A stretch of 64,000 nucleotides of DNA from an uncultured Clostridia bacterium (GTDB lineage Bacteria > Bacillota > Clostridia > UMGS1883), in assembly GCA_947626145.1 (NCBI GenBank), contig CANQRB010000004.1:29250-93249 (forward strand). Reading direction: 5' to 3'. The notes under the pieces were generated by a model that saw only the letters and a list, made by a program, of their open reading frames with translations, searched no databases and was not told the origin of the DNA. A program made the position numbers and the translations under genes. Positions 7,910 to 63,975 of this stretch are shown here, in pieces. Each line of letters begins with the position of its first letter. Position 1 is the stretch's first letter.

Positions 7910-8022
7910 TTTATGCCGTTTTACGGCAATATTTACAACATAAAAATGAAAATTAGAAATTATTTGTTGAAATTGCACAATTACTCACAACAATTTTGTA
8001 CATTATGGATAAGGGAAAGATA

Positions 8023-33153: not shown

Positions 33154-33244
33154 TGGCGGAGAGAAAGGGATTCGAACCCTTGATCGGGGTTAACCGATAC
33201 ACGATTTCCAGTCGTGCGCCTTAGACCAGCTCAGCCATCTCTCC
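33154..33244 (-). tRNA. tRNA-Ser (anticodon GGA)
   Basis: Folded by hand. The acceptor stem is GGAGAGA/TCTCTCC. The anticodon arm is CACGA-CUGGAAA-UCGUG. A long variable arm (ATCGG...CCGAT) and a T-arm (AAGGG-TTCGAAT-CCCTT) are present. The discriminator is G and CCA is encoded. Confidence 0.93.
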
Positions 33245-59059: not shown

Positions 59060-59566
59060 TTATCTGAAAATTCTGCTCCTCACATAAACCGACATTCCGT
59101 CCAGTATTTTGTCGTTGGGCTCGAACACCAGCATACAGCTGCCGCCCTCGCCGGCAAACACGGCGAACATAGCGCCGGAAGCATCGGGAGCGGACGCCGC
59201 CTGTATCACCTTGGCGAAGCTCCGCTTCATCTCCCCCTTTTTGTCCGGATCGTCAACCCGGGCGCAGAGCTCCATGGCCTCCATATCGAAGCCGCAGAGC
59301 CGCCGGCGGTTCCTGCCGCCGATTATCACGTCCACGTCCAGATGGTCGTTGGTGAGGATATATTCAAATTCTCTTTTTATGCCGGAGGCCAGCCACCAGG
59401 CCCCATAGCCTCCCAGCACCAGAAGCACCAAAGCGCTGGCAAAGCCCAGCCACAGTCCGGCTCCGCCGCATATCACGAACAGAGCCAGGATTATGAGACA
59501 GTATTTGAGCATATCGCTTCGGTCGAATTTTTTCTTTACAAGATATTCAGTATAGTTTTCCATCAA
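59060..59566 (-). CDS. Membrane protein of unknown function
   Basis: 168 aa with two N-terminal TM helices. Its start overlaps the PBP stop by 4 nt. Confidence 0.6.
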   Translation of the reverse strand: MMENYTEYLVKKKFDRSDMLKYCLIILALFVICGGAGLWLGFASALVLLVLGGYGAWWLASGIKREFEYILTNDHLDVDVIIGGRNRRRLCGFDMEAMELCARVDDPDKKGEMKRSFAKVIQAASAPDASGAMFAVFAGEGGSCMLVFEPNDKILDGMSVYVRSRIFR

Positions 59567-62286
59567 AAGCCTCCGTCGCTTACGACCTCGCCGCCGGAAG
59601 GAGCGGTTCCGCCGCCGTCACCGCCGCCGGAGGGAGCCACGCTGCCGCCGCCACCGCCGGAGGGCGTTACACTGCCGCCGCCCGAAGGCGTTACGCTGCC
59701 GCCACCGCCGCCGGAAGGTGTTACGCTGCCGCTGTCGCCGCCGCCGGAAGGCGTTACGCTGCCGCTGTCACCACCGCCGGAAGGCGTTACGCTGCCGCTG
59801 TCGCCGCCGCCCGAAGGCGTTACGCTGCCGCCACCGCCGGAGGGTGTTGTGCTGCCGCTGTCGCTGCCGCCGGAGGGCGTTGTGCTGCCGCTGCCGTCGC
59901 CGCCGCCGGAGCCATCACCGCCCGCGGGCTCGGCGGAAACCGTTTCGCCGCCTTCGCCCGAGGTCGTTTCGCCTGAGCCGGAGCCGGAGCTTCCGGAATC
60001 GTCATCATCGTCGGAGCTGCTGCCGGAACTCGTATTACGCCTTGACGACGAGCCGCTGCTGCTTGTCGCCTTGCCCTCGCTGAGGACATTCTTGCTGCCG
60101 GTCACAAGGGGATGGAGCTTGCAGCGCGTAGTGGGGATGCTGCCGCTCTTGAAAATCTGACTCTCCACACGGTCACAGCCCGGATTGGCCCGCTGTCCGC
60201 TGTCGGAGCAGATCATCACCGAGACCTCCTTGCCGGGTCTCTCGAAATCCTTATATTTCAGATCCTCGTGAATGGGCATCATCACCTTGCGCCAGGTGAG
60301 GGCCGCCGGGTTGGAAGAAAATCCGCTGAGGTTCCGGGGCTGGTCATAGCCGAACCACACCGCGCCCACATAATAGGGTGTCATACCCACGAACCAGCGG
60401 TCATTGCTGGTGGTGGTGCCGGTGGTGCCGGTCTTGCCGGCTATTTCCATTCCGCTGAAGTTGGCCATCTTGCCGCTGCCGTAGCTGACAACGTCCTTAA
60501 GCATCGAGATCATGTCGGCGGCGGTCTTTTCGCTCATGGCTATCTCATGGGTGGGCTCGCCGCTGAGGATAACGCCGCCGTTGGCGTCCAGCACCCTGGT
60601 GTAAAGGGTGGGCTTGTTGTAAAAGCCGTCGTTGACAAAGGAGCAGTAGGCCGCCGTGAGCTCAAGCACGCTGACGCCGTCGGTAAGGCCGCCGAGGGCC
60701 AGAGGCGCCAGATCCTTATCGGAGAAGGTCTTGCCGTTGCGCTCCTCAAAATCCACAAGGGTGGAAATGTGCATACGCTCGGTCATATAGTCGAAGGAAT
60801 TGTCCACGCCGAGGTAACGGCACACCTTGACGGCGGGCACGTTACGGGAATTGGCAAGGGCGCTGCGAACCGAAACGTTGCCCACAAAGCGGTTGTCCAC
60901 GTTTTTCGGGGACCAGCCGTTATAGGTGACGGGGGCGTCCTTTACCGTGGAGGTGGGCGTTATGAGGCCGTATTCCATGGCCGGACCGTAAACGCCGATG
61001 GGCTTGATCGTGGAACCCGGCTGGCGCAGGGACTGAGTGGCACGGTTAAGTGTGAGGTTGCCCTCCTTATCTCCGCGTCCGCCCACAAGGGCCTTTACCT
61101 GGCCGGTATAGGGATCCATTATGACCATGGCGGACTCGGGCTGTACCTCGCCCCTGCCCTTGGGGAACGCCGACTCGTCGGCGTACACGTCGTCCATGAT
61201 CTGCTGGAGGTTCATATCCTGAGCCAGATATATCTTGAGGCCGCCGTTAAATAGAACGCGCTGGGCTATATCCTTTGTATAGTTATACTGGGTCATAAGA
61301 TCGTCAATGATCTGGTTTATGGCCGCGTCAACATAGTAGCTCTGATAAACTATCTCATCCTGAGTCTTAAGGGGCACAAAATGGAGCTCCTGCGCCACGG
61401 CATCCTCATACTGAGCCTGAGTGATGTGGCCCAGCTCAAGCATTTTTCCAAGGACTACCTCCTGCCGCTCCTTATTGTTTTGGGGATTTGCGTAGGGGTC
61501 GTACTTGGAAGGGGACTGGGTTATGCCGGCTATGCAGGCGCACTCGGCCAGAGACAGCTCCGATACGGGCTTGCCGAAATATACGTTGGCCGCCGAGGAA
61601 ACGCCGTTGCACTGCTGACTCAGGAAAATGGTATTAAGGTAATATTCGAGGATTTCTTCCTTGGACAGCTCATCCTCCAGCTTGAAGGCCCGGTATATCT
61701 CCTGAATTTTTCTTTCAACGCTGTAGCCCTTTTCGCCGGTAATGTTCTTTATGAGCTGCTGTGTCAAGGTGCTTCCGCCGAAGGTACGGTCGCTGGTGCC
61801 CCTGATCTTGCCGTAGACATAGGTTACCGTCGCGCCTATGGTACGCTTGATGTCAACGCCCTTATGGCTCCAGAAGCGCTCGTCCTCAATGTCAATGAAG
61901 GCGTTCTGAAGGTCCTTGGGTATATCGTCAAGGTCCACCCAGATGCGGTTTTCGTTGTCATAGAGCCGCTGCACCTCAACGGTGTTGCCGTCGGGGTCGG
62001 TGCCGTAAACAAAGGACGTCATGTTCAGCTTTATGTTGTTCACGTCGATGGTGTCCACGGTCTCAACATAGCCGAACAGGGCTCCCGCCACTATACCGGC
62101 GCCGATAATGCCGATGAGCAGCACAATGAGCAGCAGCGCCAGAAAGACGTTCCTGAACGACAGGAGAATCGCCATTCCGACGCTTCTCTTCTTTTTGCCG
62201 GAAGAGGTTCCCCTCCGAGTTCTGTCATTTGCCATAAAAAGCGCACCTCCGAAGTTATTTGAGGAGTAGTAATTATAGAAAGACAT
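59563..62286 (-). CDS. Class A penicillin-binding protein (PBP1A-type transglycosylase/transpeptidase) with a low-complexity tail
   Basis: GT51 motifs EDERFWSHKGVD and GGSTLTQQL. Transpeptidase motifs STIKP, SRN and KTGTT. The C-terminal ~130 aa are Gly/Ser/Thr/Pro repeats. Confidence 0.93.
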   Translation of the reverse strand: MSFYNYYSSNNFGGALFMANDRTRRGTSSGKKKRSVGMAILLSFRNVFLALLLIVLLIGIIGAGIVAGALFGYVETVDTIDVNNIKLNMTSFVYGTDPDGNTVEVQRLYDNENRIWVDLDDIPKDLQNAFIDIEDERFWSHKGVDIKRTIGATVTYVYGKIRGTSDRTFGGSTLTQQLIKNITGEKGYSVERKIQEIYRAFKLEDELSKEEILEYYLNTIFLSQQCNGVSSAANVYFGKPVSELSLAECACIAGITQSPSKYDPYANPQNNKERQEVVLGKMLELGHITQAQYEDAVAQELHFVPLKTQDEIVYQSYYVDAAINQIIDDLMTQYNYTKDIAQRVLFNGGLKIYLAQDMNLQQIMDDVYADESAFPKGRGEVQPESAMVIMDPYTGQVKALVGGRGDKEGNLTLNRATQSLRQPGSTIKPIGVYGPAMEYGLITPTSTVKDAPVTYNGWSPKNVDNRFVGNVSVRSALANSRNVPAVKVCRYLGVDNSFDYMTERMHISTLVDFEERNGKTFSDKDLAPLALGGLTDGVSVLELTAAYCSFVNDGFYNKPTLYTRVLDANGGVILSGEPTHEIAMSEKTAADMISMLKDVVSYGSGKMANFSGMEIAGKTGTTGTTTSNDRWFVGMTPYYVGAVWFGYDQPRNLSGFSSNPAALTWRKVMMPIHEDLKYKDFERPGKEVSVMICSDSGQRANPGCDRVESQIFKSGSIPTTRCKLHPLVTGSKNVLSEGKATSSSGSSSRRNTSSGSSSDDDDDSGSSGSGSGETTSGEGGETVSAEPAGGDGSGGGDGSGSTTPSGGSDSGSTTPSGGGGSVTPSGGGDSGSVTPSGGGDSGSVTPSGGGDSGSVTPSGGGGGSVTPSGGGSVTPSGGGGGSVAPSGGGDGGGTAPSGGEVVSDGGF
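59590..59925. repeat. Imperfect in-frame tandem repeats (mostly 42-bp units) encoding the PBP tail
   Basis: Units such as ccggaaggcgttacgctgccgctgtcgccgccg recur. They translate on the minus strand as (G)GGDSGSVTPSGG. Confidence 0.85.
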
Positions 62287-62406
62287 AATTAACTTATTAT
62301 ATTTTACATCAAAACCGTTAAAAAAGTATTACAAAATCCCCTTTTTCCACTTTTATTTTGCGGGAAATTGCATTTTGAATTTTTACTGCGCATATTGCAC
62401 AAAAAC

Positions 62407-62435
62407 ATTGTAAAATTATTGTATAATTCTGACAA
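62407..62435 (-). promoter_or_regulatory. Candidate PBP1A promoter
   Basis: On the minus strand: TTGTCA, a 17-nt spacer, then TACAAT. It sits back-to-back with the first sRNA-like unit's promoter. Confidence 0.55.
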
Positions 62436-62478
62436 AATGCTTCTTGCAAAACCTGAAACCCTGTGGTAAGATATATAC

Positions 62479-62558
62479 GTACTCGATGAGAGTGCAAAAA
62501 CTTTTTTCATTTTCCCTCCTTTTTTAGTGGCAGATACACAGTGTCTGTCATTTTTTTT
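62479..62558 (+). ncRNA. Candidate sRNA or leader unit 1 (~80 nt) with a CCCUCC motif
   Basis: Promoter: TTGCAA (62444), a 17-nt spacer, then TAAGAT (62467) with an upstream TGg. A conserved block at 62489-62560 contains UUUUCCCUCCUUUUUU. The terminator is GGCAGATAC-aca-GTGTCTGTC plus T8. Confidence 0.45.
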
Positions 62559-62669
62559 GCGCTCTGCCGCCGTTATTATAAGTTTTGCACAAAACCTCGC
62601 CGCTTTCTTTATAAAAATTGAATAAAATTACCGTTGATATGGCGCTTTAAAAGCTGATATAATAACAGT

Positions 62670-62748
62670 GCGCCAGTAGAGTGCATAAGTTTTTTTCATT
62701 TTCCCTCCTTTTTTAGTGGCAGATACAACGTGTCTGTCATTTTTTTTG
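62670..62748 (+). ncRNA. Candidate sRNA or leader unit 2 (~79 nt), a duplicate of unit 1
   Basis: Promoter: TTGATA (62634), an 18-nt spacer, then TATAAT (62658). The conserved block 62678-62749 is near-identical to 62489-62560. Its terminator ends 30 nt before the ATG of the downstream ATPase gene. Confidence 0.45.
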
Positions 62749-62778
62749 CAATAATACTACCTTAAAAGAGGTGCCGTC

Positions 62779-63975
62779 ATGAACAGATACGCTTATTTAA
62801 ACTCCCGTCTGGGTACGCTGACCGTATTCCGCAATATCCTCGGCGAGCCCGTGATAGCAAGGCTAAGGGAGCTTCTCTCCTGCGAGGACTGGGACAAGCT
62901 CCGTCTGGCCGAGCTGTACTGCGGCTTTGTACACGAGCTGTACCTCACCGGAGACAGCCTTACCGACTGGGTGCTGCGGTACATATCCGGCGACGAAAAC
63001 CCATACGTGGGCCGCATTATTTCCGGCGGGGTTCCGGGTAAGTTAATGGAAGAGAGCCTGACAAACGAGCTGAAAATTCTTGAAGAGCTGGCCGCGCTGG
63101 ACTGCGGAGAGGTTGCGGAGGCCATTAACTGCGGGCTTGAGCTGCCCCGCTGGGAGAGCCGCCGCGAGGATCTGACCGCCGCCTGCCGCCGGAGAATTGC
63201 CGAGATACCCACCAGGGGCTACGGTATATTTGCCAAATATCATATGTTCACCCTGGACGGCGACGGAAATCTCGTGCCCGTCCGCCATCCCGACCCACAG
63301 ACTCTTGACAGCCTCTACGGCTATCAGCGGGAGAGGGAGACCGTAATGCGCAACACCCTCGCCCTTATCGAGGGCCGGGGCGCCAACAACGTCCTCCTCT
63401 ACGGGGACGCCGGCACCGGTAAGAGCTCCACGGTCAAGGCCATCGCCAACGCCCTTAAGGACAGGGGTCTGCGCCTTATCGAGGTCAGGAAAAACCAGCT
63501 CTACCTGCTGCCGGGGCTGATGGACAGCCTTGAGGGCAGCCCGCTGAAATACATCATATTTATTGACGATCTGAGCTTCGGCGGCGGGGACGCCGACTTT
63601 GCCGCCCTGAAGGCCATACTGGAGGGCAGCGTCAGCAGCCGCGGCACAAACGTGGCCGTTTACGCCACCAGCAACCGCCGCCATCTGCTTAAGGAGAGCA
63701 TGAGCGACCGTGACGGGGACGACATTCACGCCTCCGACACCCGTCAGGAGCAGCTGAGCCTTTCCGCCCGCTTCGGCCTGACGGTGACCTTCCTCCGGCC
63801 GGAGCATGAGCTTTACTGCGAAATAGTGGAAAAGCTGGCCCGTGAGCACGGCATAACCATGGACAGGGATCGGCTTCTGGTCAAGGCTGAGGCCCACGCC
63901 ATCAGGAACGGCGGCCGCAGCCCCCGCACCGCCAAGCAGTTTGTGGAAATGCTCAGTCAGGGAGTTATAGAATAA
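62779..63975 (+). CDS. AAA-type ATP-binding protein (DUF815-like)
   Basis: 398 aa with Walker A LLYGDAGTGKSSTVKA and Walker B YIIFIDDLSF. The family name is recalled from memory. Confidence 0.75.
   Translation: MNRYAYLNSRLGTLTVFRNILGEPVIARLRELLSCEDWDKLRLAELYCGFVHELYLTGDSLTDWVLRYISGDENPYVGRIISGGVPGKLMEESLTNELKILEELAALDCGEVAEAINCGLELPRWESRREDLTAACRRRIAEIPTRGYGIFAKYHMFTLDGDGNLVPVRHPDPQTLDSLYGYQRERETVMRNTLALIEGRGANNVLLYGDAGTGKSSTVKAIANALKDRGLRLIEVRKNQLYLLPGLMDSLEGSPLKYIIFIDDLSFGGGDADFAALKAILEGSVSSRGTNVAVYATSNRRHLLKESMSDRDGDDIHASDTRQEQLSLSARFGLTVTFLRPEHELYCEIVEKLAREHGITMDRDRLLVKAEAHAIRNGGRSPRTAKQFVEMLSQGVIE

Follow-up and report, generated by a model that had tools for sequence, protein, structure and literature searches.

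The DNA analysed here is a 64,000-nt stretch of contig CANQRB010000004.1 from an uncultured Clostridia bacterium (hereafter the window), and our subject is the 543-nt intergenic region that separates a gene for a PBP1A-type penicillin-binding protein (- strand) from one for a DUF815 AAA+ ATPase (+ strand). It contains a 72-nt direct repeat (62489-62560 and 62678-62749), which a repeat search found at a spacing of 189 nt and with 93% identity between the copies. This bears out an earlier note, made from the letters of the window, that had pointed to a near-exact repeat of about 72 bp and read it as two separately transcribed units. By window position, the features of the region are:

59563..62235, - strand: class A penicillin-binding protein gene, PBP1A-type (Pfam Transgly and Transpeptidase)
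62386..62404, + strand: upstream motif of unit 1, CTGCGCATATTGCACAAAA, a candidate operator (imperfect TTGTGCA-N3-TGCACAA, about 40 nt upstream of the -35)
62444..62472, + strand: promoter of unit 1, with -35 TTGCAA (62444-62449), a 17-nt spacer and extended -10 TG-G-TAAGAT (62464-62472)
62477..62558, + strand: predicted small RNA (sRNA) copy 1, about 80 nt (fold, terminator scan and covariance model)
62479-62495, 62496-62525, 62526-62552 and 62551-62558, + strand: parts of copy 1, namely 5' hairpin, unpaired CU-rich core, terminator stem-loop and U8
62508-62510 and 62514-62519, + strand: core elements of copy 1, anti-AUG CAU and CCCUCC
62576..62594, + strand: upstream motif of unit 2, TTATAAGTTTTGCACAAAA, a candidate operator (repeat and upstream alignment)
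62634..62663, + strand: promoter of unit 2, with TTGATA (62634-62639), an 18-nt spacer, TATAAT (62658-62663) and an upstream TG, scoring 11/12 in the promoter scan
62668..62747, + strand: predicted sRNA copy 2, about 80 nt (fold, terminator scan and covariance model)
62668-62686, 62687-62714, 62715-62741 and 62740-62747, + strand: parts of copy 2, namely 5' hairpin, unpaired core, terminator and U8
62779..63975, + strand: DUF815 AAA+ ATPase gene (Pfam DUF815, E = 3.7e-82)

While the 72-nt block stands as first drawn, what has been duplicated is larger: a second repeat, TTGCACAAAA (62395-62404 and 62585-62594), also recurs about 190 nt apart and belongs to a conserved motif upstream of the promoters. 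Overall, the sRNA gene unit measures about 190 bp, the 72-nt block being its transcribed part. Each copy had been credited with a promoter of its own (TTGCAA-17-TG-G-TAAGAT and TTGATA-18-TATAAT) and both lie where they had been placed; in homologues of unit 1 the promoter reads TTGnnn-17-TGcTATAAT, with its position kept. Likewise, the hairpin and T8 said to end each copy were recovered on the + strand by our terminator scan (62526-62552 and 62715-62741; 12 pairs each, then T8). Folding gave both + strand RNAs the same order of 5' hairpin, unpaired tract and terminator at energies that 0 of 200 shuffles equalled (copy 1, -22.2 kcal/mol, z = -4.37, covariance model 108.7 bits; copy 2, whose 5' hairpin is the variant sequence GUGCGCC...GAGUGCAU, -18.9 kcal/mol, z = -4.28, covariance model 93.4 bits), and the core previously described as looking single-stranded is unpaired with a probability of 0.97 in copy 1 and 0.99 in copy 2. 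The - strand of the repeat blocks is no better structured than shuffles. Across the 64-kb window, a 35-nt core allowed up to 3 mismatches has just two copies (0 expected) and a covariance-model search of the window returned the same two alone.

That these blocks reach beyond one genome emerged from two kinds of search. An exact 22-nt core, scanned over one genome per GTDB species, occurs at 8 loci, all from Oscillospiraceae or 'Clostridia' metagenome-assembled genomes (MAGs), several of them from rabbit gut. Further loci were fetched via homologues of the ATPase protein, without use of the RNA sequence, and a covariance model was built from 12 copies (relatives' loci are labelled L001 to L041, L001 being the window's own genome). 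Wherever the upstream sequence sufficed and the ATPase was at least 64% identical, the relatives examined all have the RNA upstream of the ATPase gene; covariance-model searching did not find it at three loci with 56-58% ATPase identity. It forms tandem pairs in the window, L004, L007, L008, L010, L013 and L015, and single copies in L005, L011, L016 and L017. The strict core pattern had no match in JGI metagenomes; a looser pattern run on metagenomes added 6 more divergent members with a shorter U-run, which takes the family to 28 matches and 26 distinct sequences, at 1-3 copies per genome and in syntenic positions. Altogether the RNA was met in at least 7 different genomic contexts, the downstream genes by locus being:

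L009: LUD-like gene
L025: nrdD
L027 and L037: DUF3794/SipL-like gene
L028: PNP/UDP-type phosphorylase gene
L036: spoIVA
L041: convergent gene

The earlier note had allowed for the block turning out to be a common dispersed repeat, and a remnant of a mobile element (like a repetitive extragenic palindrome or a miniature inverted-repeat transposable element) with no function of its own might indeed be imagined from the repetition within the locus, from the third copy that one MAG (Lapin-021__bin62) carries between unrelated genes at L009, and from the 5'-truncated copy at L036, which is without 5' hairpin and promoter. We give this idea next to no credence: the block is conserved in relatives at a few syntenic positions, terminal inverted repeats and target duplications are absent, blastn against plasmid and phage collections gave no match, nor did the strict core pattern in viral contigs, and invariant sequence amid change-saturated flanks is the opposite of neutral decay. 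The copy at L009 (6984-7095) has an extra 29-nt hairpin, GGCGCUGUUUUGAAUAGCGCU, inserted ahead of its terminator. L027, L028, L036 and L037 have a common block in the 55-65 nt or so after the terminator, though their downstream genes differ, and this block consists of a sigma-E-like promoter GCATATT-N14-CATATATT plus GTAAGGAGG and ATGGAA. Together with the truncated L036 copy, it suggests that a module of RNA plus promoter has been copied or recombined between loci.

Selection on the RNA is evident from its sequence. The core, AAACUUUUUUCAUUUUCCCUCCUU..UUAGUGGCAGA, is invariant in all 26 sequences apart from the length of one U-run (4 to 7 nt, 3' of CCUCC), whereas between the same DUF815-linked genomes identity is as low as 61% for the ATPase and 35-59% for PBP1A. 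Within the units, identity is 85-89% for the RNA, where only the hairpin loops differ, and 65% for promoter and spacer DNA (61% when shuffled). Since the core is equally invariant in loci reached through the protein (L011, L013, L015, L016, L017), this is no artefact of the search pattern, and the comparison shows the core to be under purifying selection. Where both copies could be compared (window, L004, L007, L010, L015), terminator loops are 85% alike within a genome and 75% between genomes; this greater likeness at home suggests that the copies evolve in concert, whether gene conversion acts on the transcribed part or duplication has occurred repeatedly.

Alignment of the regions upstream of 24 copies revealed about 100 nt of conserved architecture, which runs from a 17-bp imperfect palindrome (TTGTGCA-N3-TGCACAA) through an A/T-rich UP-like tract to TTGnnn-17/18-TGnTATAAT (the -10 being TGcTATAAT). 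The right half of the palindrome, TGCACAAAA, is almost invariant and held at a fixed distance in nearly all 24 promoter regions, including those of the divergent clade. In the window it occupies 62386-62402 and 62576-62592, about 40 nt upstream of the -35, and it recurs in L004, L005, L007, L009-L011, L015-L017, L025, L037 and L041, being kept despite the differing context. Judged by this pattern, it is probably the operator of a regulator. Elsewhere in the 64-kb window, matches to the palindrome are not above the count in shuffles; one of them (7964-7980, TTGTTGAAATTGCACAA, 2 mismatches) precedes by about 140 nt the start (7825, - strand) of a very large surface-protein gene, whose initiation region ranks with the best at pairing with the sRNA core.

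Downstream of this, 5-8 nt separate the promoter from the 5' hairpin in all promoter regions but that of the truncated L036 copy (23 of 24), so that a transcript should start at the foot of the hairpin. The hairpin has 5-7 bp, usually GUACUC-GAUGA-GAGUAC, and shows compensatory changes from CUC/GAG to CC/GG and CUU/AAG. It is followed by a G-free unpaired tract of about 30 nt, AAACUUUUUUCAUUUUCCCUCCUU(U0-3)UUA, and then by a terminator whose outer stem (GUGGCAGA/UCUGYCAU) is conserved in sequence and whose inner stem and loop vary yet still fold, ahead of U6-10. This terminator hairpin with its U-run folds in all 26 distinct members, the tract has an unpaired probability of 0.94-1.00 in all full-length members by ensemble folding, and the modelled pairs are canonical in 98.7% of cases against 23-55% with partners slid. 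The two blocks form a tandem sibling pair of predicted sRNAs from a real, previously uncatalogued family of the CU-rich anti-Shine-Dalgarno kind.

Could the conserved sequence encode small proteins instead? As the earlier note had it, the - strand reads GGAGGG-AAA-ATGAAAAAA, a strong Shine-Dalgarno (SD) sequence with an ATG, and opens into reading frames of 68 and 23 codons; on the + strand, a leader peptide of about 13 residues might run from the AUG in the hairpin loop to a conserved UAG (AUG AGA GUG ... UAG), in frame in window copy 1, L006 and L004 copy 1. We nonetheless rate short peptides on either strand as very improbable. The argument already made against the - strand frames holds, with similarity stopping about 7 codons in, T6/T7 differences in T-run length that shift the frame between copies and no Pfam match; on the + strand there is no SD, the frame is lost in L004 copy 2, L007, L016 and L005, and the AUG itself is absent from L011, L017, L025, L028 and L041. 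With U/A-run indels shifting frames and AUG missing in several members, we rejected peptides on both strands.

What the tract does look fit for is pairing with start sites. An idealised initiation region, 5'-AAAAAAGGAGGGAAAAUGAAAAAAG-3' (SD, short spacer, AUG, two lysine codons), is matched base for base by the complementary segment 5'-AAACUUUUUUCAUUUUCCCUCCUUUUUUA-3', whose CAU stands at a fixed 4-nt distance 5' of CCCUCC. Within this segment, CCUCCUUU is the anti-SD sequence of the 16S rRNA 3' tail. CU-rich UCCC-type motifs that bind the SD are a hallmark of translation-blocking sRNAs in low-GC Gram-positives (PMC4132741), and on this precedent (LhrC and others) we propose occlusion of ribosome-binding sites (RBS) in trans. 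More specifically, we think it fairly probable that the two blocks are sibling genes for trans-acting sRNAs of about 80 nt, which most likely occlude SD and AUG of target mRNAs; comparison between relatives likewise supports the earlier suggestion of two independent RNAs with an anti-SD core. Each gene would have a sigma-A-type extended -10 promoter with UP-like tract to itself, probably under a regulator bound to the palindrome, and would end at its own intrinsic terminator. The short 5' hairpin may be protective, and the tract would pair in trans with target mRNAs at their ribosome-binding regions, thereby blocking 30S binding and lowering translation and/or mRNA stability. Its reach over AUG-AAA-AAA makes mRNAs of exported or envelope proteins that start with Met-Lys-Lys plausible preferred targets. 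In this genome, moreover, ATPase mRNA may come in part from read-through of copy 2, in which case the tract could mask the ATPase RBS in cis.

A broader version of the same idea, which we find rather unlikely, sees the RNA as a general mask of initiation sites: in bulk, it would rival the 30S subunit for the strongest A-rich SD-AUG-AAA-AAA sites and re-programme translation globally. Here the anti-SD sequence and the initiator anticodon triplet CAU would act together on one strand at a ribosome-like spacing, the 1-3 strongly promoted genes under a palindromic operator would supply the RNA, and secretome and cell-envelope mRNAs would be the ones affected.

Several of our results weigh against occlusion in trans. 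Sliding RNAduplex scans for targets, which covered the 64-kb window with a reversed-sequence control, gave duplex energies equal to that control (0.1% quantile -21.5 vs -21.4 kcal/mol). With stems that are themselves largely conserved in sequence, covariation is modest (5 double-change cells). The ATPase initiation region forms 13.8 expected pairs with the core as compared to 7.7 +/- 5.4 for 48 others in the same placement, of which 12% do as well. A role in cis is conceivable in the window, L007, L008, L011, L015 and L017, where the gap between terminator and ATPase (27-47 nt) is devoid of a consensus promoter. Finally, invariance over about 45 nt exceeds typical seed needs and could point to a protein or ribosome partner.

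The scan also bears on target class. In all loci examined, near-perfect complements of the core were matched by the genes' own antisense strands only. Among the window initiation regions that pair best, most belong to exported or surface proteins starting MKK or MRIKK (a D-alanyl-D-alanine carboxypeptidase-like protein is one of the set); such a bias is expected because the complement is A-rich, and it is statistically indistinguishable from the reversed-sequence control. We infer an envelope-directed target class from the make-up of the tract.

With the promoterless gap in mind, one may ask whether the unit beside the ATPase gene is its 5' leader. In such a scenario, U8 would stop most transcripts, regulated read-through would set ATPase expression, and on read-through RNA the CU-rich tract would mask the ATPase RBS; the signal could be a protein on the pyrimidine tract or UTP/CTP-dependent pausing in its U/C runs. 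Besides the gap (the second terminator does end about 30 nt before the ATPase start, as first described, its T-run lying 30-31 nt from the ATG at 62779), several observations fit. The element is co-oriented with a close downstream gene in 6 of 7 independent contexts, and in L017 it is still linked to the ATPase although araA replaces PBP1A. Moreover, read-through RNA is predicted to pair CCUUUUUUA with UAAAAGAGG (the ATPase SD) and UUCAU with AUGAA, and expected pairs between core and translation initiation region (TIR) number 7-12 in the window, L007, L008 and L011.

Against this, pairing with the ATPase TIR is unexceptional, as 12% of the 48 other initiation regions in the window pair equally well, which makes it generic rather than special, and neither minimum-free-energy nor ensemble folding produced an alternative antiterminator fold: the tract stays unpaired throughout and the 5' arm of the terminator has no complementary segment. 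The distal tandem copy has a promoter and terminator of its own and no gene to control, and at L041 the downstream gene is convergent. After the terminator, separate promoters serve the downstream gene at five DUF815 loci (sigma-A-like, TTGAAA-17-TAgAAT type; L004, L006, L010, L013, L016) and four sporulation-gene loci (sigma-E-like; L027, L028, L036, L037). The promoterless gap occurs in the window and close relatives only, and even there the ATPase of the window, L007 and L008 could be driven by a weak extended -10 (TGCAATAAT / TGTAATAAT) over the U-tract. Taken together, unrelated downstream genes, separate promoters and lack of antiterminator pairing favour an independent sRNA gene, and the leader seems to us a doubtful explanation. 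A classical antiterminator leader, as one form of the attenuator that the earlier note had offered, was rejected for want of a mutually exclusive structure competing with the terminator; what survives of that proposal concerns copy 2 of this genome, where read-through into the ATPase gene is possible since no clear promoter lies between the copy-2 terminator and the ATPase start.

The length of the invariant stretch raises a different question, namely whether pairing alone explains it. Some 45 consecutive nucleotides, including the outer terminator stem, are invariant, which exceeds the constraint expected of a seed and keeps a protein- or ribosome-binding role alive. The RNA may be a decoy, its G-free pyrimidine tract between two hairpins titrating an RNA-binding protein (a KH-domain protein of the KhpA/KhpB type, Hfq, a cold-shock protein or ribosomal protein S1) or, in an option as unconventional as the general mask, docking on a conserved protein or the ribosome itself, which would account for the invariance. 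Such a role would suit the multiple copies and the strong-looking promoter with UP-like tract, as expected of a stoichiometric titrator, and it would fit with no specific target standing out in the window. Protein binding alone, however, leaves the exact complement of SD, spacer and AUG at fixed spacing unexplained, variation of the U-run between 4 and 7 nt sits more easily with segmental pairing than with a rigid protein site, and no candidate protein has been identified or genetically linked. On balance, we regard a decoy as improbable and prefer to see the conserved RNA as one that occludes start sites in trans.

How does the family relate to known RNAs? Rfam searches and a hunt for further copies, both called for by the earlier note, yielded copies in relatives from Oscillospiraceae/Clostridia and no Rfam family at threshold; in the window and six divergent loci only tRNA reached gathering score (in the 64-kb window, the sole such match is a long-arm tRNA of 88 nt at 33157-33244, - strand). 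At E <= 10, ncr1241 alone matches the repeat blocks, whereas snoR72, L10_leader and BTnc005 nearby look like chance. Membership of RsaE/RoxS, LhrC, CsfG/ylbH or ncr1241 was rejected, there being no covariance-model match at threshold, and a literature search for the core sequence returned unrelated papers only.

In design, LhrC1-5 of Listeria monocytogenes come close. They are multicopy sRNAs whose CU-rich UCCC-type motifs pair with the SD, their targets include the surface adhesin LapB, and they are induced by cell-envelope stress via LisRK (PMC4132741). Like them, the window RNA is G-poor, comes as near-identical copies with own promoter and terminator and has a UCCC-type sequence followed by U-runs; their envelope targets and stress response parallel the Met-Lys-Lys/envelope bias suggested for it. 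LhrC, however, carries three redundant CU-rich UCCC sites, in loop A, linker and terminator loop (PMC4132741), as opposed to the single long unpaired CU-rich tract of the window RNA, which also covers the start codon; hairpin loops of the window family (GAUGA at the 5' end, variable in the terminator) are without UCCC. Nor is there similarity by sequence or covariance model, and Oscillospiraceae are a different phylum-level lineage.

The same anti-SD logic, by which an accessible C-rich motif pairs with GGAGG and occludes the ribosome, operates in other Firmicutes sRNAs (RoxS/RsaE RF01820, FsrA, RNAIII, SprD). Use of UCCC has been described for RsaE, RNAIII, SprD and FsrA (PMC4132741). What RoxS/RsaE have in common with the window RNA is the C-rich anti-SD seed; they differ in having several CCCC regions in loops and a length of about 90-115 nt, they gave no covariance-model match at E <= 10, and in the window RNA the complementarity takes in SD, spacer, AUG and two Lys codons. 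In outline, Bacillus ncr1241 (RF02451) is similar, with an unpaired C-rich stretch (UUCCCCCC) between a small 5' stem and a terminator with U-tail, yet its gathering score is 60 bits, whereas our copies score 27.0 and 21.9 and do not form the model's 5' stem (non-canonical pairs). It is a B. subtilis RNA from between yugI and alaT with function unknown (PMC2965217).

Spore-forming Firmicutes also have CsfG, a highly conserved sporulation sRNA read from the strand opposite to the Rfam ylbH motif; its CU-rich stretches lie in loops and between helices (PMC3574147). The sporulation genes that adjoin some copies of the window family, such as spoIVA and a SipL-like gene, are reminiscent of it. CsfG, however, has about 136 nt and several helices, Rfam ylbH found no match on either strand, and promoters of the window family are sigma-A-type (TTGnnn-17-TGnTATAAT) rather than forespore sigma-F/G-type. 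As for layout, PrrF1/PrrF2, OmrA/OmrB and AbcR1/AbcR2 are head-to-tail sRNA pairs in one intergenic region, each with own promoter and terminator. These resemble the window pair in their tandem arrangement, to which our family adds evidence of concerted evolution, and differ from it in being proteobacterial and Hfq-dependent, with other seeds and no homology.

Oscillospiraceae are abundant gut anaerobes whose RNA regulators are almost unknown, and the family offers a clean, testable candidate with extreme conservation and a defined unit of operator, promoter, RNA and terminator. If our interpretation is right, it would be a translational regulator specific to this lineage, with a target code that can be read, its conserved operator would provide a route to the transcription factor, and the covariance model could be used for RNA annotation in MAGs.

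Some further observations concern the genes on either side. The divergent PBP1A gene is called as 890 residues in L001 and is not linked to the RNA in every genome, L017 having araA as upstream neighbour. On its own strand, the motif (G/A)TTAAAAAAGTATTACAAAA is kept some 80-100 nt upstream of the PBP1A start (window 62317-62336; also L004 2655-2680, L005 1055-1080, and in L007, L010 and L016) and may belong to the promoter or 5' untranslated region of PBP1A. A promoter-like TTGTCA-17-TACAAT (10/12; window 62407-62435, - strand) is directed towards PBP1A and overlaps the UP-like region of unit 1, so that divergent promoters may interfere with each other. For DUF815, similarity was just generic AAA+, to clamp-loader and initiator proteins, and no solved close relative was found; a cyanobacterial record of its co-purifying with YlxR/RnpM, an RNA-binding protein (PMC11622646), was judged too remote and not used. 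In the closely related strain L002, whose ATPase is 100% identical, the G·U pair G62530-U62548 of terminator 1 has become A-U, one loop base of the same terminator is also altered (window 62530 and 62538 compared) and 5 nt (GCAAT) are duplicated between terminator 2 and the ATPase SD. Lastly, a MazE/PemK-type toxin-antitoxin pair (L001 2931-3563) sits beside alr and yjeF downstream of the PBP1A-DUF6106 genes, and this gene order (PBP1A-DUF6106, toxin-antitoxin, alr, yjeF) is kept in L013 and L016.

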